From Candidatus Omnitrophota bacterium (lineage in GTDB: Bacteria > Omnitrophota > Gorgyraeia > JAHJTE01), in assembly GCA_018830005.1 (NCBI GenBank), contig JAHJTE010000001.1, positions 193,332 through 257,331 of the forward strand: a DNA stretch of 64,000 nt, in the 5' to 3' direction. This document shows positions 36,280 through 58,347 of the stretch, piece by piece. The first letter of the stretch is position 1, and each line of letters opens with the position of its first letter. The translations under genes were made by a program, and so were the position numbers. The notes under the pieces were generated by a model, which ran no database searches, was not told the DNA's origin, and saw nothing but the letters and a program-made list of their open reading frames with translations.

Positions 36280-36288
36280 TGGTATAAT
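36280..36288 (+). promoter_or_regulatory. Extended -10 element TGgTATAAT ~85 nt upstream of the first rSAM gene of the island
   Basis: 'tggtataat' at 36280-36288 in an AT-rich 140-nt intergenic gap. Confidence 0.35.
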
Positions 36289-36373
36289 AGAATCGAAAGC
36301 TTAAAATATCAATTTTAAAGAGTTGTTTTCTCCCCTGATAAAAAAATATAATTTATAGACACCTAGACCAAAC

Positions 36374-37456
36374 GTGAAGCCTCATCTCATAAAGACCAAA
36401 GAAAAAGACAATTATATCCAGCAGCTTGAAGCAAAGCTCCTACCCCGCGGCCGTCCGCTTGCCGGGCAGATTGATGTTACATACCGCTGTAATCTAGCCT
36501 GCCAACATTGTTTTATTGTCCCTGAAGAAAACACTGAGGAACTTAAATTTAGCCAAATAATATCTATTATAGATCAGCTCTATGAGGCAGGCTGCCTTTT
36601 TCTTTACTTTAGCGGAGGAGAACCTTTTTTAAGAGAAGATTTTTTGGATATCTATACTTATGCCAGAAACAAAGGCTTTTTAGTCAGCATATTCACAAAC
36701 GGTACTCTTATAAGCGAGGAGATTCTAGATTACTTAGTTAAACTTCCTCCCTATTCTATCGAGATTACATTAAACGGAATAACCCAAGATGTGTATGAAC
36801 AAATAACCCAAGTTAAAGGTTCTTTTTCAAAAGTGATGAAGGCAATAGAGTTGATTAAAGATAAGAATCTGCCTCTTGTTCTTAAATGTAATGGCATGAA
36901 GATAAATTACGATCAGATTTTGAAGATAGAAGAGTTCTCACAAGATTTATTAGGCAAAAAATACTTCCGCTGTAACCTTTCACTTGATCCTGCAATGGAT
37001 GGTTCAAAGAGGCCGTGTGCTCTTAGGCTTAGTCCTGAAGAGACATTAAATATAGTGCATTCTGATGAGGATATGTTTTCACTCTGCCGAGAAGAATTCC
37101 TGCATCACAAAGATAATTCACGCTTAAAAGATGGCTATCTATTTCCTTGCGGCTTGAGTTATTTTAATATTGACGCTTACGGTAAGATGAGACTTTGTTT
37201 ATTTATCAGAGAGGCCTACAGCGACTTGAAGAAAGAAAAATTCTTAAGAGGCTTTGCAAGAATTTATGAAAATCTTTCCGGACTTAAATTCAAGACTAAC
37301 AGCAAATGTCGAAATTGCAATATAAGTTATCTCTGTCGGCAGTGTCCGGGCAGGGCCTTAGCAGAGAATGTTGATATGGAGGCTCCGGTTGAGTTTTTCT
37401 GCGAACTTGCGCATAAAGAGGCGCAGAGGATGGAAGAGGTTTTAGTTAAAAAGTAA
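36374..37456 (+). CDS. Radical SAM/SPASM-domain peptide-modifying enzyme #1 (GTG start)
   Basis: rSAM 'CNLACQHC' (CX3CX2C); 'FSGGEP'; C-terminal SPASM-like 'CGLSYFNIDAYGKMRLC…CRNCNISYLCRQCP'. Confidence 0.8.
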   Translation: MKPHLIKTKEKDNYIQQLEAKLLPRGRPLAGQIDVTYRCNLACQHCFIVPEENTEELKFSQIISIIDQLYEAGCLFLYFSGGEPFLREDFLDIYTYARNKGFLVSIFTNGTLISEEILDYLVKLPPYSIEITLNGITQDVYEQITQVKGSFSKVMKAIELIKDKNLPLVLKCNGMKINYDQILKIEEFSQDLLGKKYFRCNLSLDPAMDGSKRPCALRLSPEETLNIVHSDEDMFSLCREEFLHHKDNSRLKDGYLFPCGLSYFNIDAYGKMRLCLFIREAYSDLKKEKFLRGFARIYENLSGLKFKTNSKCRNCNISYLCRQCPGRALAENVDMEAPVEFFCELAHKEAQRMEEVLVKK

Positions 37457-37479
37457 AAAATTTAAAGGGAGGTGAACAA

Positions 37480-38007
37480 ATGCTTAAGTTAGATGAAGTT
37501 TATGTAAAAGAGCAAGATTCCTGGGTAAGCAGACATATTTTGGATGAGGTAGTGATTATGCCTTTATGTAGAAGCGCTGATGACATGCAGTATATCTATT
37601 CAATTTCCAATGAGACTGGTTCAAGGATTTGGCAGCTTCTGGATGGTGATAATTCGACCTGGGATATCCAGGAGACAATAAAGTCAGAGTATCAAGGTCA
37701 GTTCGAGGTAATAGAGCGAGAAGTGTTGGGATTCTTGAAAGATCTTTCTGAGGCAGGGCTTATTCGCAAGGCCAGAATTAAACCGAAAACCGAAAACCTA
37801 AACCCGAAACCCGAGATAAAAAAGAAACCCTACAAGAGCCCAGAGATTGCCAAGGTAAAGTTACAGCCTGAGCAGGCAGTCTTAAGTTGCTGTACAATCA
37901 ACGGCGGTTATAAAGGAACCACTGTAAATAGATGCGCTGGTCTATGTCCAATTGATGCTTCATGCAACGCATTATCGGATCAATCCCGTGATGCGCTTGC
38001 CACTTAA
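37480..38007 (+). CDS. PqqD/RRE-like domain protein with Lys/Pro-rich linker and Cys-rich C-terminal tail
   Basis: N-terminal PqqD-like 'ISNETGSRIWQLLDGDNSTWDIQETI…EVLGFLKDLSEAGLI'; tail 'AVLSCCTINGGYKGTTVNRCAGLCPIDASCNAL' (5 Cys in 30 aa); SD 'AAAGGGAGGTG'. Confidence 0.65.
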   Translation: MLKLDEVYVKEQDSWVSRHILDEVVIMPLCRSADDMQYIYSISNETGSRIWQLLDGDNSTWDIQETIKSEYQGQFEVIEREVLGFLKDLSEAGLIRKARIKPKTENLNPKPEIKKKPYKSPEIAKVKLQPEQAVLSCCTINGGYKGTTVNRCAGLCPIDASCNALSDQSRDALAT

Positions 38008-38175
38008 ATAGTGCAACTTGATTATACATGTCTATCCGCTGTAGGTACAGATCAATACAGATTAATCCGCCTAGATCAATAAAGAGCTCTTACATCGCCT
38101 TCCTCATCCTAGCATCTATCTGTCGTTGATATAGAATGAGGTTACGGCAGATAGAGACTAATCAGTGAAAGAAAC

Positions 38176-39285
38176 ATGATAAACCAAGGTGATTACGATA
38201 AATTTCAAGCAAGATTAATCAAGAAGGCAAGGAACAAGGCCTTTCCTCTTAAGGCAATGTTTGAACTTACCTATAGGTGTAACCTTAAATGCCGACACTG
38301 CTATGTGTGCGATGGCGAGAATAGAAAAGAATTACAAACCCAGGAGGTCTTTTCTATTCTTGATCAGTTGGCAGAGGCAGGATGTCTAAATTTAGGTTTT
38401 ACAGGAGGAGAGCCTTTCCTGCGAAAGGATATATTTGATATTTTAAGATATGCTAAGAATAAGGGATTTAATACCGTACTTTTGACCAATGCGACTTTGA
38501 TTGAAGAAGCTGATGCAGACAGGTTAAAAGAGTTGGGTCTAAATAAGATTGATGTATCTTTTCATACTAGGAAGCAAGAGGTTTTTGATTGGTTTACTCA
38601 AAGGCCTGGTACATATAAAAGAGTCTCAGAGGCAGTCAGGCTCTTAAGAAAAAAAGGCATTGATGTTTTTCTTAAAACGACTGCAATGACTATAAATAAG
38701 GATGAGATTTTAGCCTTGAGGCATCTTGCAGTAGAGAAATTTGGCGCACATTTTCGCTGGAGTTCGATAATAACTCCAGACCTAGAGGCTAATAAGGAGA
38801 ATTTGAGGTTTCGTTTAACAGCAGAGGATGTTAATTGTCTAGAGAAGCAGATTAGAGATGATAGTGTAATAGAATTTGAAAAACTAGACACCTTGGAAAA
38901 AATAAATAGAAAGTCAGCGAAAAGGCAAAGGCCTATTAGAAAGATAAATCATAACCAGCTGTTTCATTGTGGTGCAGGCAAAACAGAGGTTGTAATAGAC
39001 CCCTATGGCCAGATGAGATTATGTCTGGATATACCATTCCCAAAATACGATATTTTAAAGAGTAATTTCTCCCAAAGCTGGAAGATGTTAACTGATTTTG
39101 TAAGAGATACAGCTGGCGGGTCTAGTTATCAATGTCAAGACTGTGAACTTATTCAATATTGTAAGTCTTGTCCTGCGTATGCATGGCTTGAGTGCGGTGA
39201 CATCAGTGCTTGCCCGCCATATTTTAGAGAGCTGGCGCGTCTGGCAAAGATGGAATCCGAAACAGAGGATATAAAGATTGCATGA
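38176..39285 (+). CDS. Radical SAM/SPASM-domain enzyme #2
   Basis: 'CNLKCRHC'; 'FTGGEP'; SPASM-like 'CGAGKTEVVIDPYGQMRLC…CQDCELIQYCKSCP'. Confidence 0.8.
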   Translation: MINQGDYDKFQARLIKKARNKAFPLKAMFELTYRCNLKCRHCYVCDGENRKELQTQEVFSILDQLAEAGCLNLGFTGGEPFLRKDIFDILRYAKNKGFNTVLLTNATLIEEADADRLKELGLNKIDVSFHTRKQEVFDWFTQRPGTYKRVSEAVRLLRKKGIDVFLKTTAMTINKDEILALRHLAVEKFGAHFRWSSIITPDLEANKENLRFRLTAEDVNCLEKQIRDDSVIEFEKLDTLEKINRKSAKRQRPIRKINHNQLFHCGAGKTEVVIDPYGQMRLCLDIPFPKYDILKSNFSQSWKMLTDFVRDTAGGSSYQCQDCELIQYCKSCPAYAWLECGDISACPPYFRELARLAKMESETEDIKIA

Positions 39286-40193
39286 GGAAAGAACTTAGAT
39301 TAGAAATTGCCGGGATTGGATTTTTATTTCGTTATAATAATTGTCAGATTAAAGAAGGCAGATATAGTCCAGCATACCTTGAGGATTTTATTAAACCGGG
39401 TAATAATAGTGATTTCATTATTGATCTTGACGTGGGATCTCTTCCTGCAATTCCTAGGGGGAGGCTGTTGTTTGAATCAAAGGAGAATTGGCGTTCCTTT
39501 GCGCATAACGGAAGTTTCCTAATCGAGACTTACTATGGTAAGTCAGAGATAACCAGGGTTTGTGTAATAAATAAAGATCTAAGTAAGGCAAAGGTATATA
39601 TCTCACCCTGGACAGACGAATTTGATAAAAAGAAAAGACTTAAAAACAATCCTCCCAAGAACTGGTCACTGGAGACATTTTTTTCTGTTTTAGGCCAGCT
39701 TATTTTAATCAACCTATTACATAAATATCAGGGGCTTCTTTTGCATGCCTGTGGTGTAGTTGTTGATGGTGCGGGATTAGTTTTTCCCGGGATATCAGGC
39801 GCAGGCAAGACGACTCTGACAAGGTTATGGCAGAAGAGGGGTGGCCTTGGCCTATTAAGCGATGATCGGGTAATTATTCGAAAGATAAATAAAGAATATT
39901 TTGTTTCTGGAAGCCCTTGGCCAGGCGAGGCCAGGATTGCCTCTGGTAAATCAGCGCCGCTTAGTAAAATCCTGTTTCTTTCCAAGGCCAATCAAAATAA
40001 ACTCAAAGCCCTAGGAAAAAGAGAAAGTCTATATCTGCTTATGAGGCAGTGTTTTCCTCCTATATGGGATAGACAGGCGATTGATTTTTTTCTTAAGTTT
40101 TGCGCAAGTCTAGTCGAAGATGTCCCCTGTTTTTCATTTGGTTTTGTTCCGGATGAAAGCGCGCTAGATTTTATTTTAAAAAACCACTCATGA
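39282..40193 (+). CDS. HPr kinase C-terminal-domain-like (HprK-related) P-loop protein #1
   Basis: 'LLLHACGVVVDGAGLVFPGISGAGKTTL' and 'LLSDDRVII' resemble HprK/P catalytic core; ATGA overlap with upstream rSAM. Confidence 0.65.
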   Translation: MRKELRLEIAGIGFLFRYNNCQIKEGRYSPAYLEDFIKPGNNSDFIIDLDVGSLPAIPRGRLLFESKENWRSFAHNGSFLIETYYGKSEITRVCVINKDLSKAKVYISPWTDEFDKKKRLKNNPPKNWSLETFFSVLGQLILINLLHKYQGLLLHACGVVVDGAGLVFPGISGAGKTTLTRLWQKRGGLGLLSDDRVIIRKINKEYFVSGSPWPGEARIASGKSAPLSKILFLSKANQNKLKALGKRESLYLLMRQCFPPIWDRQAIDFFLKFCASLVEDVPCFSFGFVPDESALDFILKNHS

Positions 40194-41293
40194 TTAAAGA
40201 GTTAAGATTTAGGAAAGAATTTACAGAAAGGCTGGAGCGAAAGCGCGATAAGATGGATTTTCCCCGCAATGTAATTTTTGAGATTACACATCAATGCAAT
40301 CTGCGTTGTCGGCATTGCTATGTAGTGCCAGATTCCAGAAAAAAAGAATTAACGACTTCGCAGGTTAAATCAGTTTTTAAGCAATTAGTTGATGTAGGTT
40401 GTCTTCATCTGACCTTAACTGGTGGTGAGCCTTTAGTGCGGCCGGATATCATTTCCTTGATTGACTATGCCCGCAGGCTAGGGCTTTTTATCCATCTTTT
40501 TACCAATGCCACCCTTATAAATCTTGAGATTGCTGATAAATTAGGAGAGCTTAGCCTTACATCCTTAGAGATATCTTTTCACAGTCTTAAGCCTAAACGT
40601 TTTGATTCCTTTACTAGAGTGGAAGGTTCTTTTGATTCGGTGATGAAGGCAATCAGGCTTGTTAAAGAGAGAAAAGAAAGCATTGCCTTAAAGATAAACA
40701 TAACCAAGGCAAACCTTGATGAGATTGATGATTTCAAAGAGTTTGCGAATGATTTAGACGCGGTCATTGAATGGGGAACTATTCTTAGACCAAGGAATGA
40801 TGGTTCACAGGATAATCTATCTTTACGTCTTGAGCCAGAAGAGGCATTAAAGCTAGGCTATATGCTTGGTCTTGAATCTATTCTTGATGAGCCAATACAT
40901 AATAATAAAGAATGTCATCCTCCAGAAAATAAACTCACCAAGCCAAATAGAAATAGGATAGAGAGCGAGTTATTTCGTTGTGGGATCGGCAGTGAAGGTT
41001 TAGTTATTGACCCCTACGGAGAATTAAAGCCTTGTCTTGTGCTTGGCCTTTTAGGCTATTCTATTTTTGATAGCAGTCTAAAGCAGGCATGGATAAATTT
41101 AAGAGCTGATTTGAATTCAATGAAACCGACAGCTGATTATAAATGTCTTGATTGTAATCTAGGGCATTATTGTTCATCTTGTCCAGCAAGAGCGAAACTT
41201 GAATGTAATGATATGAACTCATGTCCTGATTATTATCGTCGGCTGGCAGAATTAAGGTGTCAAAATAATGGCTATAAGAATTCAAGAATATAA
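40190..41293 (+). CDS. Radical SAM/SPASM-domain enzyme #3
   Basis: 'CNLRCRHC'; 'LTGGEP'; 'CGIGSEGLVIDPYGELKPC…CLDCNLGHYCSSCP'. Confidence 0.8.
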   Translation: MIKELRFRKEFTERLERKRDKMDFPRNVIFEITHQCNLRCRHCYVVPDSRKKELTTSQVKSVFKQLVDVGCLHLTLTGGEPLVRPDIISLIDYARRLGLFIHLFTNATLINLEIADKLGELSLTSLEISFHSLKPKRFDSFTRVEGSFDSVMKAIRLVKERKESIALKINITKANLDEIDDFKEFANDLDAVIEWGTILRPRNDGSQDNLSLRLEPEEALKLGYMLGLESILDEPIHNNKECHPPENKLTKPNRNRIESELFRCGIGSEGLVIDPYGELKPCLVLGLLGYSIFDSSLKQAWINLRADLNSMKPTADYKCLDCNLGHYCSSCPARAKLECNDMNSCPDYYRRLAELRCQNNGYKNSRI

Positions 41294-42389
41294 GGACTTT
41301 AGCTTGAGGCTTCATGATAAAGGTTCAAGAAAGCCGATTCTGGGACAATTTGAGCTCACCCATAACTGCAATCTTGCTTGTCAGCATTGTTATGTTGTAA
41401 ATGAACCCCAAAGGCAGGAACTTTCTTACAGTGAGCTTTGCCGTATCTTTGATGAAGTTTATGAACAAGGATGTTTCTGGCTCTGTTTTACTGGAGGCGA
41501 GCCCCTGTTGCGGAAAGATTTTCTTGATATTTACTCATATGCCTACAAAAAAGGATTTCTTATTAGTATCTTTACTAATGCGACACTTTTTAATGAGAAT
41601 ATAGCAGGACACCTTAAGGATTTTCCGCCCTTTTGCATTGAGGTAACCTTGAATGGCATTACTAAAAAAACATACGAATTAATTAGCCAAAGGCCGGGTT
41701 CTTTTGAGCTAGCAATGCGCGGCATTGAACTTATCCGAAAGTTTAAGCTCCCCTTAAAGTTAAAATGCCAGATAATGACTTTAAATATAGATGAGATCGA
41801 TTTGATGCGTAAATTTTATGATAAGATGAACATGGCTTTTCTTTGCAGTCTGATAATTAACCCACGCTTAGACGGTTCGACTCAGACCACTTCTTTGCGT
41901 TTGCCGATTGAGAAAATATTGGAACTTAGAAGGCAAAAAGAAGGACTAGCTGAATGTAGTGATTCTTCAAGGGATATCTTAGGTATGTTGATGCTTCCAG
42001 ATAAGAAAGAAGACATTTTTTTAGAGGAAGATTCATCATTTGACGGGGATAATGAATTAAACCTTGCCTCTGATGCGCTGTTTCGTTGTCCAGGAGGAAC
42101 ATGGGCATTCTATGTTAATCCTTATGGTGAACTTTGTTTTTGTAATTCGCTAAGAGAGCCAGCGTGGGATTTGCGCAAGAATTCATTCAAGCAAGGTTTT
42201 TATGAATTTTTTCCAAAGATTCGCTCAGAGAAGTTTAAAACCGATTCTAAATGCCGAGATTGCGATATCAAGTCAGACTGCCTTAGTTGTCCGGCAAGGG
42301 CTTATTTAGAGACAGGTGATAGAGAGGCCCCTTTGCCCTATTATTGTGAGTTGGCTCAAAAAAACAGGAAGAAAGAAATCAGGACTTAA
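41268..42389 (+). CDS. Radical SAM/SPASM-domain enzyme #4
   Basis: 'CNLACQHC'; 'FTGGEP'; 'CPGGTWAFYVNPYGELCFC…CRDCDIKSDCLSCP'. Confidence 0.8.
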   Translation: MAIRIQEYKDFSLRLHDKGSRKPILGQFELTHNCNLACQHCYVVNEPQRQELSYSELCRIFDEVYEQGCFWLCFTGGEPLLRKDFLDIYSYAYKKGFLISIFTNATLFNENIAGHLKDFPPFCIEVTLNGITKKTYELISQRPGSFELAMRGIELIRKFKLPLKLKCQIMTLNIDEIDLMRKFYDKMNMAFLCSLIINPRLDGSTQTTSLRLPIEKILELRRQKEGLAECSDSSRDILGMLMLPDKKEDIFLEEDSSFDGDNELNLASDALFRCPGGTWAFYVNPYGELCFCNSLREPAWDLRKNSFKQGFYEFFPKIRSEKFKTDSKCRDCDIKSDCLSCPARAYLETGDREAPLPYYCELAQKNRKKEIRT

Positions 42390-42398: not shown

Positions 42399-44009
42399 AT
42401 GAATAGTAGGCGTTTACGTGTCGGCATAATATCACGAAAGAATTTAGGTTCATTAAACAGCCTAAGCTGTAGGGTGCTTTTTAAAAACGCCTTAAAGATC
42501 GTTGAGAGTAGATTCAATGCGTGCTGTTGCTTCCTGAATAGCTCTACTAACTCAAACAAGAAGGAGATAGCACTTAAGAAGCTTACCTCTTCTTGCGATG
42601 TGATTTTGGAATTAGCTCCAGGGCAAATGTTTGATATAAAGGCCAAATCAATACCTAGAGTCTTTTTTGCACTTGGTTTTATGTCAAATCCTTTCAATCT
42701 CATGGCTAGCTTTAACAGAAAACTCATGACAGCCAATTCCGTTCTTTTCTCATGCAAAGCGGATTTGGAAATGTTTAATAAAATATTTGGCAAGACAGGA
42801 CGCAGTATGGGCTATATTGTGCCTTTCCCTCTAGAAGTTAATGAATTCAAACCACAAAGTGAGCTTGAAAATAAACGCATGCGAGAAAGATTTGGTATTG
42901 GAGGAGATGTCTTTCTTATCTTGTATGCGGGAAGAATTAACGTGCAGAAGAATATACACACATTACTTAAGATATTTAGAGAGGCCATTAAGAGATTTCC
43001 GCAAACAAGACTTTGTATAGCCGGCGAAGAAGACAGGGGTGGCTTTGAAGAGTTTGGTATTAGTAATAATGGATATACCGGCTATATTAGGAGGAAATGC
43101 CTTGAATACGGGATTGCCGATAAAGTAATATTTACTGGAAAATTAAAAAGAGAAGACCTTATATCTTTATATTCAAGTGCTGATGTTTTCATGAATTGTA
43201 CTATCAGCCAGTATGAAAATTTTGGCTATTCCCAGGTTGAGGCTATGGCCTGCGGCACGCCGGTTATTTGTTCGCATTGGGGTGGATTGAAAGATACAGT
43301 TATTCATGGTAAGTGCGGTTATCATATGCCAACCATACTTAGCAATAACGGCGTAAAGGTTGACTGGCAAAGTGGCTTAAGGCAGTTGATAGGTCTCTTA
43401 GAAGATAAGGATAGACTCAAAGAAATGTCAAGACAGGCAAGAGAACACGCAAAGCTAAACTTCTCTTTCGATAGATTTGCTAAGATGTTAGAATTCGTAC
43501 TTTTAGATACAATGAAGCGCAATAATAAGAATAAAAAACACCACTATTTGCTAAAGATTAAAAAAGAAAATCCTCATTTTATGAATTTATTCATGGAGTA
43601 TCTGTATGTAAACCGTAAAAATTACAAGAAGGGGCCGGTCTGTGTGAATAGCCCCAAAAGCCTCTTCTTTAGGCGAAATTATAGTCACTATAAATCTTTT
43701 ATAAAAGCCTACAGTTCTCTATCTGGTTCTGAAATGCTTAAAAGAAATGGCTCCATACCCTACTTTCTACAGGATGTCAGACTTATGTATAAAGGGCAGC
43801 GCCTTTATATCCAAGATCCTCTCTGGCCAGCAAGATACAGATTAGAGGATTGGCAATTTAGAATTGCCTCAGTTATTGATGGCAATAGAAGCCTGGAGGA
43901 TATTAATTCTAATTTTATACACAGGGGTTTTAAAAAAAGGAGAGATTCGCTTAAGAGGTTCTATAAGCATCTTGCTGAAGAGGGCGTAGTATCATTTCTT
44001 AGTAATTAG
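42399..44009 (+). CDS. GT4-family (GT-B) glycosyltransferase with C-terminal PqqD/RRE-like domain
   Basis: GT4 C-domain 'FLILYAGRINVQKNIHTLL…CIAGEED…NFGYSQVEAMACGTPVICSHWGGL'; C-terminal ~70 aa 'RIASVIDGNRSLEDINSNF…SLKRFYKHLAEEGVVSFL' resembles PqqD. Confidence 0.6.
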   Translation: MNSRRLRVGIISRKNLGSLNSLSCRVLFKNALKIVESRFNACCCFLNSSTNSNKKEIALKKLTSSCDVILELAPGQMFDIKAKSIPRVFFALGFMSNPFNLMASFNRKLMTANSVLFSCKADLEMFNKIFGKTGRSMGYIVPFPLEVNEFKPQSELENKRMRERFGIGGDVFLILYAGRINVQKNIHTLLKIFREAIKRFPQTRLCIAGEEDRGGFEEFGISNNGYTGYIRRKCLEYGIADKVIFTGKLKREDLISLYSSADVFMNCTISQYENFGYSQVEAMACGTPVICSHWGGLKDTVIHGKCGYHMPTILSNNGVKVDWQSGLRQLIGLLEDKDRLKEMSRQAREHAKLNFSFDRFAKMLEFVLLDTMKRNNKNKKHHYLLKIKKENPHFMNLFMEYLYVNRKNYKKGPVCVNSPKSLFFRRNYSHYKSFIKAYSSLSGSEMLKRNGSIPYFLQDVRLMYKGQRLYIQDPLWPARYRLEDWQFRIASVIDGNRSLEDINSNFIHRGFKKRRDSLKRFYKHLAEEGVVSFLSN

Positions 44010-44033
44010 TTTAAGAGCATTTGAAAGAAATAT

Positions 44034-45113
44034 ATGAGCAGAAAAACTTATTTTGATTTACTTTACAGACTAAAGGATAATATCTTTCCTTTAAGGGCAC
44101 AGATAGCATTAACCTATAGGTGTAACTTAAACTGCGTTCATTGTTTCGAGAATAAGGACAGTCGAGATGAGTTAACCCTTTCAGAAATAAAAGATATATT
44201 AAATCAGCTAAAAGATCTGGGTTGTTTGCGGCTAAATTTTACAGGAGGAGAGTTATTTTTAAGAAAAGATGTATTAGAGATTTTCGAGCTTGCGCGCAGG
44301 ATGAATTTTGACTTTAGCCTAATAACTAACGCTACGCTCCTAACAGAAGGCCTAGTCAGGAATATTAAAAAATTTAATCCTTCAACGATACAGATTAGTC
44401 TCTATGGGGCAACTAAGAAGGTCTATGAATCTATTAGCAATGTTTCTGGCTCTTTTAAGAAAACATTAGATGCAATTTCACTTTTAAAGGTGCATAATCT
44501 AAAATTAAGAATAGCTACAGTTGTAATGCGCCAGAATTTTCACGAAATAAAAATTATAAGACAGATGGCCAGAATTAATAAATGGAATTTGATAACAGAT
44601 TATTGCATATCGCCAGGATATAATGGTTCAAGAGTTCCTTTAAAATGCAGAATGACTCAAAATCAGCTTAAGAAAGCTGTTACTGAACTTAAGTCAGAAG
44701 GCAGGTATTTAAAAAAAATGAACACTATCTCTAAAGAAAGGCTTTTCTGTCTTTTATCTTTTTGTCAGCATGAGTGTTATATTTCAGCACAGGCAGATGT
44801 GTTTCCATCATGTACTTTAAGAATGAAACTAGGCAGCCTAAGAGAAAAATCCTTTGAAGAAATCTGGAGAGATTCCCAAGTTGCCAAGACCTTAAGGGGC
44901 TTGAAAAAAGAGGAGTTATATTGTCTGCGTTGTAGGCTTTTTTTCTACTGTTGTTTTGACAAAGGCATGGCCTGGTTGGAGCATGGAGATTTTAGGCTTC
45001 CAGCAAAAGAGATATGCAGGGTAATGAAGGCAGGAATAAGGAGAGATGGTAAGCTCTTGCCGCCAGGATTAGTGTCAAAGGTTAAATTCCCGTCCACTAT
45101 TTCGTTTTCTTAG
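44034..45113 (+). CDS. Radical SAM/SPASM-domain enzyme #5 (divergent C-terminus)
   Basis: 'CNLNCVHC'; 'FTGGEL'; Cys-rich C-term 'CLLSFCQHECY…FPSC…CLRCRLFFYCCF'. Confidence 0.75.
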   Translation: MSRKTYFDLLYRLKDNIFPLRAQIALTYRCNLNCVHCFENKDSRDELTLSEIKDILNQLKDLGCLRLNFTGGELFLRKDVLEIFELARRMNFDFSLITNATLLTEGLVRNIKKFNPSTIQISLYGATKKVYESISNVSGSFKKTLDAISLLKVHNLKLRIATVVMRQNFHEIKIIRQMARINKWNLITDYCISPGYNGSRVPLKCRMTQNQLKKAVTELKSEGRYLKKMNTISKERLFCLLSFCQHECYISAQADVFPSCTLRMKLGSLREKSFEEIWRDSQVAKTLRGLKKEELYCLRCRLFFYCCFDKGMAWLEHGDFRLPAKEICRVMKAGIRRDGKLLPPGLVSKVKFPSTISFS

Positions 45114-45155
45114 CAAAACGAAACAGGACTATTGGGGGAGATTAAAGGGGGTGTA

Positions 45156-45290
45156 ATGATGAGAAAGGATTCCAAAAAAATTTCAAAGACAAGAAATGCT
45201 AAGGACAAATATGAGAAGCCAAAACTTTTCAAATACAGAATGGTAGATGTTGCCAGTGCTTTAGTAGCTGGACAGATAGAACCTTTATGA
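45156..45290 (+). CDS. Unannotated small ORF, 44 aa: MMRKDSKKISKTRNAKDKYEKPKLFKYRMVDVASALVAGQIEPL; candidate precursor peptide
   Basis: Not in the six-frame track (<60 aa). Strong SD 'AAAGGGGG' at 45145-45152; tandem ATGs at 45156 and 45159; lies in the 284-nt gap between rSAM #5 and the stand-alone PqqD gene; Lys-rich N-terminal half, hydrophobic small-residue C-terminal half. Confidence 0.45.
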   Translation: MMRKDSKKISKTRNAKDKYEKPKLFKYRMVDVASALVAGQIEPL

Positions 45291-45408
45291 ATAGAGCAGA
45301 TGTTTGCTTGATATCCTATGGCTTGAATTAGTTTTTCTAATGGGTAGATTATATATTTACTGAAGGAAAAATCTATCTGTTAACTAATAAATAAACTTGG
45401 AGGTAGAT

Positions 45409-48143: not shown

Positions 48144-49325
48144 ATGAATATAACAATTTTTCCTCATGCCTATTTGCCTAGCGTAGGGGGCGTAGAAGAG
48201 GTAGTCAGAAATCTAGCCAGAGAATTTAAGGCAAAAGGCCATCGTGTAGGACTAATAGTATTTGTTCCACTTAGAAGATTCAGGGCACGTGAGATTATTG
48301 AAGGAATAGAAGTTAGAAGATTCTATGTTCCCTTTGTAATATTGCCCTATAGAGTGAGCTGGCGAGCTTTTCTTGATGTAGTTGAAATGCTTGTTTGTTT
48401 GCCTCTTGCCCTGGTTAGAATAGCGCGCATACTCAAAGAAAATAATAGCCAAATAATACACATACATTATATTGGCGTAAATGCATTTTATATTTGGTTG
48501 CTTTCCTATTTTCTCTCCTTAAAATACATCGTAAGTTTGCACGGCTTTAATTTACAAGTAATACCTTTCCTGAAAGGCGCAAGCAGAGCTGTTCTTAATT
48601 TTGTTTTTAAGTCTATATTGCAGCGCGCCAGTTTTGTTACTGCCTGTTCTGAGTATCTACTTGATGATGCAAAAGAAAGAGTCCCCCAGATAAGAAATAA
48701 GTCTTGTGTTATCCCCAATGGCATAGATTTGGATGAGTTTAAGCATAACGGCCGCAGTTTAATAGATTATCCCTACATCCTTTGCCTGGGAAGACTGCAT
48801 GCACCCTTTAAAGGTTTTGATATTGCCCTGCTTGCACTCAAGGATATACTAGATTCAGGCCTTGATATAAATCTGGTTCTAGCCGGAGACGGGCCAGCCC
48901 GCACTTCTTATGAGAGATTGATAAGATTATTAAAGATAGAGAAAAATGTGCATTTATTTGGTTTGGCAAATAGAAAAGATGCAGTAAATTTAATCAGAAA
49001 CTGCCAATTCTTTGTGATGCCTTCACGCGTTGAACCTCTAGGTATTGTAAACTTAGAGGCCATGGCCTGTTCTAAGGCAGTCATTGCTTCCAGAGTAGGC
49101 GGTATACCAGAGGTAGTTGAGCATGGCCTAACCGGATTATTAGTTGAGTCATGCAGCGAGAAAGCACTGGCTGCAGCGATAAAGCGACTTATGGAAGATA
49201 AGAATTTAAGAATCAGACTTGGCAGAAACGGCAGGCTTAAGGCTGAGCAACGTGGATTTTCTTGGGAGTTTATAGCCGATAAACATCTGGAGATATCAAA
49301 AGGATTTTTGAATTATGAAGATTGA
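48144..49325 (+). CDS. GT4-family glycosyltransferase (paralog b; divergent N-terminal half, near-identical C-terminal half to paralog a)
   Basis: 'YLPSVGGVEEVV'; C-terminal half identical at protein level over 'FKSILQRASFVTACSEYLL…GIDLDEFKHNGRSLIDYPYILCLGRLHAPFKGFDIALLALKDILDSGLDINLVLAGDGP'. Confidence 0.8.
   Translation: MNITIFPHAYLPSVGGVEEVVRNLAREFKAKGHRVGLIVFVPLRRFRAREIIEGIEVRRFYVPFVILPYRVSWRAFLDVVEMLVCLPLALVRIARILKENNSQIIHIHYIGVNAFYIWLLSYFLSLKYIVSLHGFNLQVIPFLKGASRAVLNFVFKSILQRASFVTACSEYLLDDAKERVPQIRNKSCVIPNGIDLDEFKHNGRSLIDYPYILCLGRLHAPFKGFDIALLALKDILDSGLDINLVLAGDGPARTSYERLIRLLKIEKNVHLFGLANRKDAVNLIRNCQFFVMPSRVEPLGIVNLEAMACSKAVIASRVGGIPEVVEHGLTGLLVESCSEKALAAAIKRLMEDKNLRIRLGRNGRLKAEQRGFSWEFIADKHLEISKGFLNYED
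48599..49124 (+). repeat. Copy B of duplicated GT4 segments (see 46268-46793)
   Basis: Same as copy A; tandem duplication unit of 2331 bp comprising GT4 + rSAM. Confidence 0.85.
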
Positions 49326-50427
49326 CCCCTTTGATTATACAATAGGCTTAAAGATAAAAAATATAGAGGCGGCCTTAAGGGATAGGGAATTTCAAAATAG
49401 CACCTGTGAATCTTTCCCTGCATCTTTAACCATTGCAGATACTACAAGATGTAATCTAGACTGTATAATGTGTCATCACCATTTGGCCAAGACATATACA
49501 AAGTCTGCAAGCAATATTAATATGGATTTTAATCTATTTTCGAAGATTGCCAAAGAGACATTTCCCCATATTAACCTTGTTAGTTTAAGTGTATCTGGAG
49601 AACCTTTCATTAATCCAAATTTTTCTAAAGAGTTAGAGTTAATCGCTTTCCACAAGGTTAAGTTAGGTATTATTACTAACGCCACACTCATGCCAAAAGG
49701 CGATAGCCTAAGGAGACTTGTTAATAATCTCTCTAGTATAATTGTTTCTATTGATGCTGCTAGCAAGAAAACTTACGAGGCTATAAGAAAAGGCGCTAGA
49801 TTCCAACAGGTTATCGATAACGTCAAGCGGCTTAATAGGGCAAGACTAAAATTCAGTAAAAGTTTTAGACCCAAGCTTATCTTCTGGCTAGTTTTGATGA
49901 GGAAAAATATTGAAGAGTTATCAGAATATGTGCGCTTAGCTCATGCTCTTAAGGCAGACGGGATAGGACTGGTCCACATGTCAATACATCATGAGAAATT
50001 AAAAAAAGAATCATTGATTTACCACAAGCGATTGACGAATCGCTGCTTAAAGGCAGCAAGAAAGCTAATAGATAGTTTTGGCATTGAAGTCTATAATATT
50101 GCACCTTTGTTTTCTTTTGGTAGGACACCCATTAAAAAGAGCTATTATACTTTAAACAAGAGACCTTGTAAATTTCCTTGGCGGGAGGCATTTATTGAAG
50201 TAAATGGTGATGTTTATCCTTGTTGTGCTCCGGACAAAAGTGGTTTATTGATGGGTAATGTTAGAGAGCAGACGTTTAGACAGATTTGGAATGGCAGGCG
50301 CTATCGATTATTGCGAACCAGCTTTAAAAACGGCAATCTATTTGCTCCTTGCAAGAACTGTTACCAAAGATTAAAAGATTATACCTCAGATATCAGCGGT
50401 ATCTATTTCCCGCCGCCTATTGCATGA
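49315..50427 (+). CDS. Radical SAM/SPASM-domain enzyme #7 (paralog of #6, ~55-60% aa identity)
   Basis: Same 'TTRCNLDCIMC' block; 'VSGEPF'; 'CKFPWREAFIEVNGDVYPCCAP…CKNCYQRL'. Confidence 0.75.
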   Translation: MKIDPFDYTIGLKIKNIEAALRDREFQNSTCESFPASLTIADTTRCNLDCIMCHHHLAKTYTKSASNINMDFNLFSKIAKETFPHINLVSLSVSGEPFINPNFSKELELIAFHKVKLGIITNATLMPKGDSLRRLVNNLSSIIVSIDAASKKTYEAIRKGARFQQVIDNVKRLNRARLKFSKSFRPKLIFWLVLMRKNIEELSEYVRLAHALKADGIGLVHMSIHHEKLKKESLIYHKRLTNRCLKAARKLIDSFGIEVYNIAPLFSFGRTPIKKSYYTLNKRPCKFPWREAFIEVNGDVYPCCAPDKSGLLMGNVREQTFRQIWNGRRYRLLRTSFKNGNLFAPCKNCYQRLKDYTSDISGIYFPPPIA

Positions 50428-52205
50428 AAATGTCAGAACAAATCCACAAAGAACAAGTCGCTAAAGACCTCCTTTATGAATCTATAAAAGATGGCAGGAA
50501 GCGATCTCTAAAGGTAATAGGTAGTTGTATGCATCCAGTGATACAGCCAGGGGATGAAGTATTTTTTGGAAAAAGAGAGAAGTTTAGATTCGGTGATTTA
50601 GTGGTTTACAGGCAAAGTCAGGGCTTTATTGTCCATAGGTTTATTAGAAAGGCAAAGGTTAATAACAAACTAGTTTTTATATTAAAGGCAGATAATCCCT
50701 CTGAACTTGAGGAATTCATCGGGCAGGATGAGATTATCGGCGTAGTTACTAAACTGAGACGTAACGGCAGGATTTTAATTATTGATACATTTGCAGGCAG
50801 ACTTACGAGTTTATTTTATTTCTGTCTGGCTAATTTAAATCTTGCTCAAAGTAGGCTAAAACAAAGGCATGAGCTCTTAGCTATTAAGGCACTGCCTGCT
50901 AGATTAAAGAGTATAATTTCTACTAAAGTCTTCAACCTAAAAGACGTTTTTGCCTTTGGGATAGTAGAGACTGAGCAAGATTCATTTTTGAAAGAAAGGA
51001 AGACATTAAAACTAGTCGCTAAAGATTCGCTTTGTAAGGATGAGGAAACGCAATTAATAGATTTATTGAAAAATGGCCTTGATTGGCAATACGTCCTAGA
51101 GAGAATTAAATGGAATTTTATCATACCTTTTTATATTCAAAAGCTAAAGAGTTTCGGCTGGGAGGAAGATTTATATAGAAGGAATCACTGTTTAGATTTA
51201 GAGAATATCCATAGACTTCAGCTTATACAGGATACAAAAACTAGGCTTATTCTAGACGGGGTATTAGGGGAATTTAATAAACATGGTATTAAGGTGCTCG
51301 TACTTAAAGGAGCTCATTTAGGAATAGAGGTTTATGAGGACAGTTCCCAGCGCTGGATGGGAGATATTGATTTAATCTTGAGAATAGAAGATTGGTCTAA
51401 GGCATGCAAGATCTTAAATGATTTGGGTTTTGTGCTTGATTGGTTTTGTAAAGACTATAATATTTGGAGCATAAGATATCTAGATAATCATATTGACTTT
51501 CGCAAGCAAGGTATAAAATTAGAATTAAAAACAGGCATTTGGGCCATAGATTTTCCTTATTTCAATTATAGTCTTTGGCAAGATGCCAGATTAAAGAGGA
51601 TAGGAAAAGCAGATATATATTTTCCTTCCTATGAGGATACTCTTCTGATAGCCTGCGTTAATCTCGTTCGCCATAATTTCTCAGGATTAATCTGGTTCCT
51701 GGACACAAAAAAGATCGTTGATAAATTTAAAGACTCATTAGATTGGGATGTATTTTTAGATAAAGTCTCTAGATACGATTTAGGAACCGCAGTTTATTAC
51801 GGACTTTATTTAACTGATAAGTTATTTTCTTTAACATTACCCCCTGATTTGTTAGCTAAATTTAAGCCGCCTAGATTGGTGGATAAATTATTCAATTTCT
51901 TCTGGGATAGGAAAGCGATATTACTTGAAAAGGAAGGCCTTGTATTTAAGAACAAGGTGCCTTTTGAGTGCGCTTTTGTTTTATTCTGCGGCAAGTTTAG
52001 TTTTAGGCCTGAAAAATTTGTAAGATATGTAGTATATTTATTAAAGCTGATTTTTCCTCCCCAAGACTTTATCAGAGATAAATACAAGATTAAAGTCAAT
52101 CTAGTTAGCCTATCAAGATGTTATTTAGTTAGATTGTTTAGTTTTTTATCTACGTTGTTTAGTTTGCTCTTTGACTTATTTGCGGATAAAGACAGGCGAG
52201 CCTAA
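50424..52205 (+). CDS. Two-domain protein: N-terminal S24/S26 (LexA/signal-peptidase-like) Ser-Lys peptidase domain + C-terminal nucleotidyltransferase-family domain (PF14907-like); start at ATG 50424 (ATGA overlap with rSAM #7 stop)
   Basis: 'VIGSCMHPVIQPGDEVFF…GDLVVYRQSQGFIVHRFIRK' resembles the S26/S24 Ser…Lys fold; C-term 'LKGAHLGIEVYEDSSQRWMGDIDLILRIEDW' typical of the uncharacterised NTase family. Confidence 0.55.
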   Translation: MKMSEQIHKEQVAKDLLYESIKDGRKRSLKVIGSCMHPVIQPGDEVFFGKREKFRFGDLVVYRQSQGFIVHRFIRKAKVNNKLVFILKADNPSELEEFIGQDEIIGVVTKLRRNGRILIIDTFAGRLTSLFYFCLANLNLAQSRLKQRHELLAIKALPARLKSIISTKVFNLKDVFAFGIVETEQDSFLKERKTLKLVAKDSLCKDEETQLIDLLKNGLDWQYVLERIKWNFIIPFYIQKLKSFGWEEDLYRRNHCLDLENIHRLQLIQDTKTRLILDGVLGEFNKHGIKVLVLKGAHLGIEVYEDSSQRWMGDIDLILRIEDWSKACKILNDLGFVLDWFCKDYNIWSIRYLDNHIDFRKQGIKLELKTGIWAIDFPYFNYSLWQDARLKRIGKADIYFPSYEDTLLIACVNLVRHNFSGLIWFLDTKKIVDKFKDSLDWDVFLDKVSRYDLGTAVYYGLYLTDKLFSLTLPPDLLAKFKPPRLVDKLFNFFWDRKAILLEKEGLVFKNKVPFECAFVLFCGKFSFRPEKFVRYVVYLLKLIFPPQDFIRDKYKIKVNLVSLSRCYLVRLFSFLSTLFSLLFDLFADKDRRA

Positions 52206-52206
52206 T

Positions 52207-53127
52207 TTATAGCAATTTGCCTAGAAGCCTGGGGATTTCTCTAATCTGATCTAGGCTATAAGAAAGGGCATAGGATCTTGCCTGGTAGGCGAGTCGACAG
52301 AGATTCTGTATTTGGTGTTGGCGGATAATTATGTTTTTTTCCTCAGGAAGACTATTTACCTTATCATAGGCTAAAATAGTAAAACTTTCTTTTGTCTTCA
52401 ACTTTTTTAATTCAGGCGGCCGCAGGGGATTGTCAGATTGACAAATGAATAGTATTACGCCTAAGCATGCGCGTTCAGCCGGCTTAGCCGGGAAATACTC
52501 TTGTGCATAAAAAGAGGTAGCAATTTTTCTTCCTTCATTTAATGTAAGGAATTTTAGAGATTGTTTATCTAATTTCATTTTAAGAGGAAAGGAGAGTATT
52601 CTATCTTCGTGCAGGATAGCAAATTCATCTGAAAGAAAATTATAACCTTTATCTATAAGGGCTGCGGCTAAGGTGCTTTTGCCCATACCGGGACCGCCAC
52701 AGATAAGCAGGGCCTTATTCTTTTTAGATACTACTGCCGAATGTATTAAGGATATATTGTGATATGCCAATATTCGCCGTAAGGGCGAGATTATTGTTAA
52801 GTGCAGCAGGTTTTCTATTGTTAAACTGGAGGGGTAGAGCAGCTTGGCGTTGATTTTATTCTCTTTGGGATTGGCCTCAAGCGATATATTTTTTATCCAA
52901 CAATCAAGAGAAAAGTTCTCATCTTTTAGGCCAGCAACGTCAGAACGCCCATTTTTAAACGCCTTATTTTTAACAGAGAGATTTAGATCAATTTCTATAT
53001 ATTTGTTATAACTGCGGAATTTTGGAAATTTCAGTTCTTCGCAAAAGGCGTTAAACAGAGATTGGCAGTCAGACTTAAAATTTAATTTGATGTTATGTAG
53101 ATATATATTTTTTGAATAGGTTTGCAT
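52207..53127 (-). CDS. HprK-related P-loop kinase-like protein #2
   Basis: 'IHSAVVSKKNKALLICGGPGMGKSTLAAALIDKGYNFLSDEFAIL' parallels HprK/P C-domain; 306 aa. Confidence 0.6.
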   Translation of the reverse strand: MQTYSKNIYLHNIKLNFKSDCQSLFNAFCEELKFPKFRSYNKYIEIDLNLSVKNKAFKNGRSDVAGLKDENFSLDCWIKNISLEANPKENKINAKLLYPSSLTIENLLHLTIISPLRRILAYHNISLIHSAVVSKKNKALLICGGPGMGKSTLAAALIDKGYNFLSDEFAILHEDRILSFPLKMKLDKQSLKFLTLNEGRKIATSFYAQEYFPAKPAERACLGVILFICQSDNPLRPPELKKLKTKESFTILAYDKVNSLPEEKNIIIRQHQIQNLCRLAYQARSYALSYSLDQIREIPRLLGKLL

Positions 53128-53434
53128 AGCTTAAATTGGTAATTAATTTTAACTTTTTTAATTGCCGCAAGAGTGTTAAGTAATCAGCCCCTGCCTTTTT
53201 GTAGCTTGTTTTGTGTTTTTTCATTAGGCATTTTATAATTTTTTCCGGAGATTTTTTTAATAGAAGGCCTTCTAGTATATCAAGGGAGGATTTTGTAGTA
53301 AAATTAAGTGATTTTAGGATGTCGGCGAAAGAATATTTGCTTTCATCTATGACTACAAAGACAAATTCATTGCATAGTTTTGCCCAGACAATTTTTTCAT
53401 GTTTTAGCTCGTATCTCTTTTTTAGCTCGTCCAT
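53093..53434 (-). CDS. PqqD-family (RRE) protein
   Basis: 113 aa; 'IVWAKLCNEFVFVVIDESKYSFADILKSLNFTTKSSLDILEGLLLK…' PqqD-like; overlaps downstream kinase gene by 35 nt. Confidence 0.6.
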   Translation of the reverse strand: MDELKKRYELKHEKIVWAKLCNEFVFVVIDESKYSFADILKSLNFTTKSSLDILEGLLLKKSPEKIIKCLMKKHKTSYKKAGADYLTLLRQLKKLKLITNLSYANLFKKYIST

Positions 53435-53513
53435 TTTTACACCCCTGTTGATAGCTAAATATTAACACAGTCAAAACCATAGGTCAATTGTTTAAGAAAT
53501 TTAGCAAAAGATT

Positions 53514-55286
53514 ATGTTTGATTCAGGCATAAACCAAGACAGGCTTAAATTAAAAGATGTAAAAGAAGGATTTAGGTTTTTTCTTCGTTTCAATAAATAT
53601 ATATTACGTTACTGGAAGATACAGCTGCCCATTCTGATTATAGGAAATGCAACAATGATGCTGGGTCTTGTTAATCCTTATATCGGGAAATTGATATTGG
53701 ATAAGGGCATCCTCGCCAGAAATTTTAATGTATTTATTCTCTTTACCATTATCTCTGTAACGATCTTTTTCATTTCTATTCTTTCAAACATTGCCTATGA
53801 TTATTTGAAAAATTATGCACTGGTTAATATTTCTATTGATCTTAATCGGGATGTATTTAGGAGGCTAAAAAAATATTCCTTGAGCCAATTGCAGATGAGC
53901 TCAACCGGTGTGCGTATCTTTCGTATAGTCAATGATATCGGCAATGCCTCCGAGGTTATCAATGTTACACTTGTACACATTATAAATTCAATTATTAAGA
54001 TGATTTTTATAACCGCTATCATAATATTTATTAACCCTCTTTTTTTGTTGATTATTATTGTTTATCAGTTTTTGGTTATTATCAGGATGAGATTTTTTGT
54101 TAAGTCTTTTGAGGAATTGAAAAAGATGAAGTTAAAAGCCGTTGAGAGGCTTTTTCATAGTCTTAATAATTTCTTCTCACATCTTTATCTTAGTAAGACC
54201 TTCGGCACCATGGGTAGGGAGATAGGAAGGTATATGCATAGCTTCTTTGAGCATATAAGGTTGCACATGAGAGGCGTACGTTTGGGGGCGATTGCTGGAT
54301 TTATATCCAGCATTTCTGATAAATTCTTCTTTGGGGCCTTAGCTTTTTACGGAGCATATCTTGTGATAAAGGGCGAGATAACCTTGGGCACAATGGGTGC
54401 GATGCTTGCCTATATTAGTCAGGGAGTAGGGGCATATACAGAGCTTACTAGTTTGTGCGAAAAACTGGTGTTTAACAAGATTTCTTTAGAGAGGGTAGCA
54501 AAGGTATTGGATGAACCACTTCCTGAAAATCTTCCTCAGAGAGGTGGAGTTAGGCCGCAAGATTTAAGGAGGATTGAATTTAGGCAGGTGAGTTTTGGAT
54601 ATCAAGCCAATAAAGAAATAATAAAAGGTTTAAATTTTAGTATCGAGGCTGGGTCTCATATTGGCCTGGTTGGCCATTCTGGTTGCGGCAAGACAACGCT
54701 GCTTAGCCTTATTTTAGGGCTTTATCCTGTTGAGAACGGTAAGATATTATTGGCTGATAGCCAGCTAGAGGCAATAGATTCTGCCTATCTTCTTTACAAT
54801 ATTGGCATAGTTTTGCAGGAGCCGTTTCTTTTTGATGACACTATCGCTTATAATATTTCCTATGCCTTAAATGAGGCTAGAGATAAAGATATTATTGAAG
54901 CAGCGAGGCTTTCTGATATCTATAGTTTCGTTAATTCTCTGCCTAAAAAATTTGATACAACTGTGGGAGAGAATGCCTACAGGCTTTCTCAAGGCCAAAA
55001 GCAGCGGATTGCTATCGCGCGTGCATTAATAAAAAGGCCGCAAATTTTAATTTTAGATGAAGCGATGTCTTCTCTTGATTCAGAAACAGAAAGCAAGATA
55101 ATCGCTAATATAAAAAACAAATTTTCCGATTCTACGATTATCTTGGTATCGCATAGATTGTCAGCTGTAAAGACAATGGATACAATTTATTATTTTAAAG
55201 GGCCGCATATTATGCACATAGGCTCGCATGATAAATTACTTGATGAGCTCTCTGATTATAGAGAATTCTTTAGAGAACAGATTTAA
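53514..55286 (+). CDS. ABC transporter, fused permease/ATPase exporter (no C39 peptidase domain)
   Basis: 6-TM N-domain; Walker A 'GHSGCGKTTL', signature 'LSQGQKQRIAIARAL', Walker B 'ILILDEA'. Confidence 0.85.
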   Translation: MFDSGINQDRLKLKDVKEGFRFFLRFNKYILRYWKIQLPILIIGNATMMLGLVNPYIGKLILDKGILARNFNVFILFTIISVTIFFISILSNIAYDYLKNYALVNISIDLNRDVFRRLKKYSLSQLQMSSTGVRIFRIVNDIGNASEVINVTLVHIINSIIKMIFITAIIIFINPLFLLIIIVYQFLVIIRMRFFVKSFEELKKMKLKAVERLFHSLNNFFSHLYLSKTFGTMGREIGRYMHSFFEHIRLHMRGVRLGAIAGFISSISDKFFFGALAFYGAYLVIKGEITLGTMGAMLAYISQGVGAYTELTSLCEKLVFNKISLERVAKVLDEPLPENLPQRGGVRPQDLRRIEFRQVSFGYQANKEIIKGLNFSIEAGSHIGLVGHSGCGKTTLLSLILGLYPVENGKILLADSQLEAIDSAYLLYNIGIVLQEPFLFDDTIAYNISYALNEARDKDIIEAARLSDIYSFVNSLPKKFDTTVGENAYRLSQGQKQRIAIARALIKRPQILILDEAMSSLDSETESKIIANIKNKFSDSTIILVSHRLSAVKTMDTIYYFKGPHIMHIGSHDKLLDELSDYREFFREQI

Positions 55287-55304
55287 AAAGGTAGTTTTAA
55301 GATT

Positions 55305-56102
55305 ATGAAAATACGCTTATACATCGGATTATTACTTTTGAAAATTACCGAAACGTTCAATCTCATGGGCAGGATATTTAAAAATATTTTACTAGTAGTT
55401 CTCCTGCCTCAGGATCTAAGCAGCCTTAATAAATTAGCTTATAATAATAAGGGTAATCTAAATGCGCTCTCAAGTTTGGCAACGCGAGGGCTAAATGAAG
55501 GAGAGAAGGAATTAATTTCTAAATATTGTCTTAAGCCGGGTAAGTTTCTAGTCTTAGGCTGCGGTGCAGGCAGGGAAACTTATGCATTGGCAAAGATGGG
55601 TTTTGTTGTTACGGGTATTGATTTCGTAGAGACCTTGTTAGGAAAGGCAAGAGCTGTAGCAGAAGAAGAACAGTTGAGGATAGAATACATTAATAAAGAT
55701 ATTCTTTTATGGGCCGAGGAAGAGAGAAAAGAAAAATACGATTATATCCTTGTTTCAAATAATGTCTATCTGCAGATTCCTTCAAAAAAAATACGGATTA
55801 ATTTTCTTAATAGGGCGCTTAATAAATTATCTGATGATGGCCTTTTTATTGTAATTAATAACTGCATATCTGATCTTAAATACTCTAAAATTCAGTTTAA
55901 ATTAAAAAGGCTCTTGGCAAGAATCATGTTCGCAAATGTCGGAATAGAAGCAGGCGACTGGATACCAATTCGTCAATTCTTTCACCGGCCGCAAAATAAG
56001 AATGAATTTTTAACTGAATTTCAAGATAGCGAAGCCTTAATCTATGAGGTTAGAGAAGATAAGAATCTTATTTCGGTTTTGCTAAAACATTCAAATGGAT
56101 AA
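55305..56102 (+). CDS. Class I SAM-dependent methyltransferase
   Basis: Motif I 'FLVLGCGAGRETYAL', motif II 'YDYILVSNNV'. Confidence 0.7.
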   Translation: MKIRLYIGLLLLKITETFNLMGRIFKNILLVVLLPQDLSSLNKLAYNNKGNLNALSSLATRGLNEGEKELISKYCLKPGKFLVLGCGAGRETYALAKMGFVVTGIDFVETLLGKARAVAEEEQLRIEYINKDILLWAEEERKEKYDYILVSNNVYLQIPSKKIRINFLNRALNKLSDDGLFIVINNCISDLKYSKIQFKLKRLLARIMFANVGIEAGDWIPIRQFFHRPQNKNEFLTEFQDSEALIYEVREDKNLISVLLKHSNG

Positions 56103-58347
56103 GAAGTTAAAAGAAGACATTGAAGTTAATGAGAGAGGGCTAGAGGTCCCTTGTCAGGATAGCAAGCTTTCACAACTATGCTGTGAGTATTCTGATTTAC
56201 TGCCCTGTTGTAATGCCCTTATCCCAAGGGGAAAACGTTTTAGGGACCGGGCTAAAATATTATGGGGTAAGGTGAGTTTTCTAGACCTTTTTGAACTAAA
56301 GAAGGAACTTCTAAAAACAGATTATTTTAAATTTAAAACAACAAGTTGGTGCATGTTTCCAGTCTTAAAAAAAGGCGATACGTTAAAGATTGAATCTTGT
56401 AGTTTGAATGATTTAAAAATAGGTGAAATACCAGTTTATCGTAGAAATAATAGATTATATTCACATCGAATTGTGGATAAGCATATTCTAGAAGGAAAGG
56501 AGCGGATAATAACAAGACCAGATACAGCTAAGGTCAGGAAGGGCCTCTTGCAAGAAGAGCTAGAAGAGGAGGATTTATTAGGCAAAGTAAGGGAAGTAGA
56601 AAGAGACAAAAAGAGATTTCCTCTAGAAAAAAGGGAAGCTAATTTTTGGGAGAAATTCTTATACACCAGACATAAACTCTCCTTGGCTTTATTGAAATTA
56701 TTGTCTCGTGTTTCTATGAAAACTTTAACATGCATTCAATCTCTTTGGATTTATAGATGGTTAGGAAAAAAGCTAATTAAAAGATTGGAACCCAATATAG
56801 ATTTCCAACTCGCCACACCCTCAAGGCACAAGTTAGAAATATATGAATATACACCATTAGAAAAAAGAGATAATTTTCGACCAAGAGAATATAAAAATTT
56901 TCATATTATTATGAAATCAAAAGATACGCCTATAGGATGCATTACATTCTTGAACAGAGATAAGAATTGTCCATATACAGGTTTTTGGTTAGCTGAGCTG
57001 TGGATCAGGCTTAGATATAGAGGGCTGGGCCTGGAGTCGTTTTTAGTCAACAGAGCGCAAGATTTTTTAAGAGAACGCGACCTAGAGCACATTTCTTATC
57101 CAAGGCCTCCTGTTGTGCTAAAGCGTTCTTTTTTGAGGGCTCCGCTTTATTTTAACAGCCAGGAGTTATTGATTGTTTTATCCAAGGATAAAACAGATGA
57201 AGATCTGACTAAGAGGGCACTTAGCCTTATCAGGGCCGGAATTGATTGGGATGTATTTTACAAGTTAGTTATAGCCAGTGGCAAACCCGCGGCTATAATG
57301 AAACATATAAAGTTTTTAAGTGGTCTTGAGGCGGTTGGTCATTCTGCAATTGACAGATTAAAGGGAGCCTTCTTTGATACGATTGACTCTACTACACGAA
57401 ATCACAGGCAGTTATTGGATATACTCAAGGAGTTCTCAAAAGCAAAAATTAGCGTTATTCCTTTAAAAGGTACATATTTATCCCAAAGACTCTACGGAGA
57501 TATCTCACTGCGAGGAAAGAATCTAGATATTGATTTGTTGATAAAAGAGCAGGATATAGAGAGGGCAACGGCTTTATTGAAAGGATTAGGCTATAAAGAA
57601 AGACCAGAAGAAGAAATTAGCATCTGGCGTTGGCAGAAGACATTCTCTAAAGAAGGTTTTGCCTTTCTAGAGTTACAGTGGGATATTACAATGATGCTTA
57701 GAGACAGCCAGAGGATAGAAGGGTTATGGCAAAGCGCTGATAATGTCAAGATTCATTTAGAAGGAGTAGACTTGAATATTTGTCAATGGGACAATGAAGC
57801 GCTCCTTCTTTATCTTTGCGTAACTTTAATTAATAGTAGTGGTTATAGAGATTTAAGATATTTCTTTGATATTTTTCAATTGCTAGAGAACACAAGCACA
57901 TCTTTTGACTGGGGTGCTTTTATTAAAAAGGCTAGAAGATACAAGATTAATAATTCTGTATTTGCCAGCTTGCTAAAAGCAAATGAAATCCTGAATGCAA
58001 AAGTTCCCAAGCCTGTGTTAGAGGAGTTAAAGCCGTCTTTCTTAAAAGGAATATTAATACGTATTTTCTTAAGCCGGAGTGTGATATTTACTGATAATCT
58101 AAGAAGAAGGTTTATGGATAATTTTTTAAGTTATATCTTTTTTGAGCTGCTTGAGGCAAATTCAGCTAGAGATTACCTAAGGATCGTAAAAAGAGTAATG
58201 TTTCCGCCTCGGGAGCTTCTAGAGATTCGCTTTGATAATCCAGCTTCGGCAAGAATTAGTATTTCCTCAAATTGGCAATATTCTCTCTGCGTCCTAAAGA
58301 GGCTTTGTAAGTCTTTCAGTCTCATAGGGAGAATTCTTGTAAGATAA
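56095..58347 (+). CDS. Three-domain protein: Cys-rich N-terminal segment + S24/S26-like peptidase + GNAT-like acetyltransferase + nucleotidyltransferase-family (PF14907-like) domain
   Basis: 'PCQDSKLSQLCCEYSDLLPCCNAL'; 'TTSWCMFPVLKKGDTLKI…YSHRIVDK' (S26-like); 'RLRYRGLGLESFLVNRA' (GNAT motif A-like); C-terminal 'GKNLDIDLLIKEQD' NTase-like; 8-nt overlap with MTase gene. Confidence 0.5.
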   Translation: MDKKLKEDIEVNERGLEVPCQDSKLSQLCCEYSDLLPCCNALIPRGKRFRDRAKILWGKVSFLDLFELKKELLKTDYFKFKTTSWCMFPVLKKGDTLKIESCSLNDLKIGEIPVYRRNNRLYSHRIVDKHILEGKERIITRPDTAKVRKGLLQEELEEEDLLGKVREVERDKKRFPLEKREANFWEKFLYTRHKLSLALLKLLSRVSMKTLTCIQSLWIYRWLGKKLIKRLEPNIDFQLATPSRHKLEIYEYTPLEKRDNFRPREYKNFHIIMKSKDTPIGCITFLNRDKNCPYTGFWLAELWIRLRYRGLGLESFLVNRAQDFLRERDLEHISYPRPPVVLKRSFLRAPLYFNSQELLIVLSKDKTDEDLTKRALSLIRAGIDWDVFYKLVIASGKPAAIMKHIKFLSGLEAVGHSAIDRLKGAFFDTIDSTTRNHRQLLDILKEFSKAKISVIPLKGTYLSQRLYGDISLRGKNLDIDLLIKEQDIERATALLKGLGYKERPEEEISIWRWQKTFSKEGFAFLELQWDITMMLRDSQRIEGLWQSADNVKIHLEGVDLNICQWDNEALLLYLCVTLINSSGYRDLRYFFDIFQLLENTSTSFDWGAFIKKARRYKINNSVFASLLKANEILNAKVPKPVLEELKPSFLKGILIRIFLSRSVIFTDNLRRRFMDNFLSYIFFELLEANSARDYLRIVKRVMFPPRELLEIRFDNPASARISISSNWQYSLCVLKRLCKSFSLIGRILVR

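Follow-up and report, generated by a model that had tools for sequence, protein, structure and literature searches.

The 36280-58347 region of the window, the 64-kb stretch of Omnitrophota DNA analyzed here, encodes seven radical SAM enzymes (rSAM1 to rSAM7), PqqD-type adapters, two HPr-kinase-like proteins and two signal-peptidase-like::PF14907 fusions, together with glycosyltransferases, an ABC exporter and a methyltransferase. Pfam/NCBIfam and motif checks recovered the rSAMs, kinase-like proteins, fusions, glycosyltransferases, exporter and methyltransferase that the initial annotation had listed. Stops and starts overlap and the genes share one orientation, except for two genes on the minus strand, in line with the co-orientation of nearly all genes noted initially. 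Cluster A (36374-42389, + strand) is a conserved six-gene cassette in the order rSAM, PqqD plus tail, rSAM, ScmC-type kinase, rSAM and rSAM. Cluster B/C (42399-58347) corresponds to the known system for linear polyphosphorylated peptides (LPP).

All seven rSAMs match Pfam Radical_SAM (E 1e-13 to 1e-27) and carry the CX3CX2C motif ('CNL.C..C') and a GGEP-like motif. The initial annotation treated them as seven paralogues with GGEP; however, the strict motif is present only in rSAM1-4, while rSAM5 has GGEL and rSAM6/7 have AGEP/SGEP. Judged by sequence, the seven represent two families rather than one: rSAM1-5 share 27-41% mutual identity and a complete seven-Cys SPASM pattern, while rSAM6/7 share 61% identity, are at most 26% identical to the other rSAMs, and have only five Cys in the C-terminus. 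rSAM1 (36374..37456, +; Radical_SAM E 2.5e-23), with CNLACQHC, GGEP and the seven-Cys pattern, opens cluster A, and its orthologues (64-69% identity) occupy the equivalent position in L002, L004, L010 and L014. It is followed by rSAM2 (38176..39285, +; E 9.6e-28), rSAM3 (40190..41293, +; E 4e-25) and rSAM4 (41268..42389, +; E 2.6e-18), which closes the cassette; all three have the seven-Cys SPASM pattern, and their orthologues in syntenic loci are 60-64%, 57-62% and 62-67% identical, respectively. Each of the four rSAMs in cluster A falls into an orthologous group of its own, with one-to-one correspondence between loci, rather than stemming from a recent paralogous amplification.

The second gene of cluster A (37480-38007) encodes a 175-aa protein in which a recognition element of the PqqD fold (residues 1-97; 37480..37770, +; Pfam PqqD, 44.7 bits) is joined to a Cys-rich tail. 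By sequence, the closest solved relatives of this domain are the lasso B1 protein TbiB1 (5v1u) and LppB (9x8z), and its AF2 model (pLDDT about 90) has the TbiB1-leader complex (5v1v) as top Foldseek match (E 3e-5, TMt 0.83). Asn44 and Glu79 align to the leader-binding residues N33 and D70 of LppB. A variable Lys/Pro-rich linker (residues 98-114; 37771..37821, +; pLDDT 57), with a mean pairwise identity of 18% and a length spread of 18 residues among 48 homologues, leads to a leader-like segment, KKKPYKSPEIAKVKLQPEQA (residues 115-133; 37822..37878, +), which contains a YxxPxI recognition motif. This segment has 73% mean pairwise identity, with P121, E131, Q132 and A133 invariant, and is modeled at pLDDT 82-87; in the model, residues 122-127 form a beta strand whose only possible partner is the sheet of the recognition element. 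The leader Tyr lies 16 residues ahead of the putative core in 49/49 homologues, a spacing like that in LppA. The putative core peptide, VLSCCTINGGYKGTTVNRCAGLCPIDASCNALSDQSRDALAT (residues 134-175 plus stop codon; 37879..38007, +), is disordered in the AF2 model. It is hypervariable, with 17% identity outside the Cys columns and lengths of 41 to 65 residues across homologues; five Cys are fixed, with C138, C152 and C162 invariant and C137 and C156 at least 90% conserved. It also has an NxC motif in 43/49 homologues, Ser/Thr at core residue 3 in 38/49, and Ser/Thr as the C-terminal residue in 49/50. Elsewhere, leader and core are also seen as stand-alone peptides of 65-89 aa, the leader being found in P0156, P0194 and P0225. 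The initial annotation described a recognition element fused to a Cys-rich tail but did not recognize this tail as the likely substrate. A peptide fused to the adapter domain expected to present it to its enzymes is unusual.

Cluster A also encodes a ScmC-type HPr-kinase-like P-loop protein (39282..40193, +), a putative peptide kinase. In precomputed annotation, this protein and nearly all of its homologues are assigned to PF27840 ScmC, a newer Pfam family, while its scores against HprK_rel_B, HprK_rel_A and Hpr_kinase_C are sub-threshold; G170, G175, K176 and T178 of the P-loop and D194 are invariant. The second HPr-kinase-like protein, the LppK equivalent in cluster B/C (52207..53127, −), scores 61 bits against TIGR04352 HprK_rel_A (cutoff 200) and E 1.3e-4 against Hpr_kinase_C; it carries the P-loop GGPGMGKS and an SDE motif, and the position and orientation of its gene are kept in L007, L008 and L016. 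Two HPr-kinase-like proteins are present as annotated, with the P-loop (GxxGxGK[TS]) and SD[DE] motif retained in both, although both are sub-threshold in family scans.

Cluster B/C includes its own precursor candidate. rSAM5 (44034..45113, +; Radical_SAM E 1.7e-22; SPASM E 4e-6) is paired with a 43-aa class-2 precursor peptide candidate, MRKDSKKISKTRNAKDKYEKPKLFKYRMVDVASALVAGQIEPL (45159..45290, +), which is gene-called in the source contig and was overlooked in the initial annotation. A class-2 precursor lies directly downstream of the rSAM5 orthologue in 3/4 distinct loci, and the leader Y-x-K-P-x-L-x-K-Y-[KR] is common to equivalently placed small ORFs in L008, L018 and L019. In all six frames of the window, the leader pattern occurs only twice, in the 43-aa precursor and in the PqqD tail. 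Because these precursor peptides were found, the RiPP-like reading proposed earlier is now much stronger.

Four PqqD domains had been claimed, of which Pfam supports two, the one in cluster A and the stand-alone RiPP recognition element PqqD2 (45397..45699, +, with the start at 45409 according to the gene caller; 63.7 bits). The top NCBIfam matches of PqqD2 are lasso PqqD chaperones, and it matches TbiB1 (E 1.2e-7) and LppB 9x8z (E 4e-4) in the PDB. The third, a 113-aa probable recognition element and LppB equivalent (53093..53434, −), has no Pfam match; hhalign aligns the family of three sequences to which it belongs with the PqqD2 family (probability 91%, E 9e-7), its L007 homologue has a weak PqqD match, and profile searches of the PDB rank two lasso B1 proteins, TfuB1 and TbiB1, at the top, at only E 0.2-0.3. 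The fourth would be the C-terminal extension of roughly 100 residues on a 536-aa glycosyltransferase with a GT1/GT4 C-terminal domain (42399..44009, +; Glycos_transf_1 E 3.3e-32). Its fold is uncertain and possibly PqqD-like, based on a weak hhalign match to the PqqD family (probability 8%, E 0.004, 52 columns) and a weak PqqD match in a related GT4 in L009. The top NCBIfam match of this glycosyltransferase is TIGR04157 (104 bits, cutoff 400), a family linked to rSAM peptide clusters, and L008 has a homologue in the equivalent position.

Two further GT4 genes belong to a tandem GT4+rSAM duplication with a unit of about 2.3 kb. The first copy comprises a GT4 (45777..46982, +; Glycos_transf_1 E 7.7e-44, Glyco_transf_4) and rSAM6 (46986..48122, +; SPASM E 2e-16; Radical_SAM E 2.8e-15), a group B enzyme with five Cys in a partial-SPASM/twitch-like C-terminus; the second comprises a GT4 (48144..49325, +; Glycos_transf_1 E 9.9e-42), 66% identical to the first, and the group B enzyme rSAM7 (49315..50427, +; SPASM E 4e-17; Radical_SAM E 1e-13). 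In L008, the rSAM6 orthologue and GT4 are fused into a single 775-aa protein.

The first fusion (50430..52205, +; ATG at 50430 favored over an upstream TTG) joins a signal-peptidase-I/S24-like domain to a PF14907 nucleotidyltransferase-fold domain (137.7 bits), equivalent to LppS::LppN. Its N-terminal domain scores 27 bits against Peptidase_S24 (cutoff 23.3); Foldseek likens this domain to LexA, UmuD' and SipA, and the C-terminal domain to LnuA and ANT(2'')-Ia. The 21 homologues from Omnitrophota, about 550 aa long, keep this architecture, with a conserved G-x-[S/C]-M-x-P motif, His-Arg pair, Asp and GDIDL motif. The second fusion (56095..58347, +), a signal-peptidase-like domain (Cys variant) followed by GNAT (Acetyltransf_1 E 1e-5) and PF14907 (134 bits), aligns to the family of the first, with the motifs SWCMFP, SHR and DIDL; homologues of 565-581 aa without GNAT come after the ABC gene in L007, L008, L009 and L016. 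The N-terminal domains of the first and second fusions score 38 and 30 bits, respectively, against the archaeal-type signal peptidase I model TIGR02228, below its cutoff of 51.85. Both S24/S26-like::PF14907 fusions of the initial annotation are thus borne out, as are, by Pfam, its three GT1/GT4 glycosyltransferases, the MsbA/HlyB-like ABC exporter (53514..55286, +; ABC_membrane, ABC_tran), an LppD equivalent, and the class I SAM-dependent methyltransferase (55305..56102, +; Methyltransf_25 and Methyltransf_31, E about 1e-10). The exporter is without a peptidase domain, and its NCBIfam scores (MsbA 271 bits, HlyB 287 bits) are both under cutoff.

Cluster B/C shares with LPP systems a signal-peptidase-I-like leader peptidase, a recognition element, an HprK-like kinase, a PF14907 transferase and an MsbA-like exporter; beyond this set, it has an rSAM, GT4+rSAM pairs and the 43-aa precursor (45159-45290). 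In the LPP system, published in 2026, LppS from Bacillota was shown experimentally to be the leader peptidase (Popov et al. 2026, PMC13381572). By analogy, the S24/S26-like domain may have this role, in agreement with the initial proposal. Because the LPP core gene set is matched in the right-hand half of the locus, the earlier statement that this gene set belongs to no characterized RiPP class is superseded there; for the rSAM half, it still holds. The apparent products of both clusters are small peptides with heavy modification. We infer all of their chemistry; phosphorylation and glycosylation of peptides would be plausible given the analogous LppK, PsmK and PsmN (PMC6993621).

The locus had been interpreted as a single amplified system combining GeoRSP and HPr-rel-A. 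All proteins of the locus score below the curated NCBIfam cutoffs for GeoRSP, HPr-rel-A and the SCM cassette: the GeoRSP models TIGR04303 and TIGR04302 give 72-100 bits (cutoff 400) and 24.7 bits (cutoff 100), and the HPr-rel-A model TIGR04352 stays at 61 of 200 bits. The neighborhood comparison suggested initially identified syntenic loci in other MAGs, which excludes chance or misassembly. The region is not one amplified system but two adjoining RiPP-type clusters, which are conserved separately and also found apart. In this Omnitrophota MAG, they head a locus for exopolysaccharide export of the XrtA/PEP-CTERM type. The export genes (58532..63541, +) encode an ATPase, an HD-domain phosphodiesterase-like protein, a Wza-like exporter and a Wzc-like kinase, with profile scores of 230 bits for TIGR03015 (under its cutoff of 324), 181.3 bits for TIGR03027 (cutoff 180) and 156 bits for TIGR01007 (cutoff 108). 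Matching export genes also come after the cluster in L008, L009 and L019.

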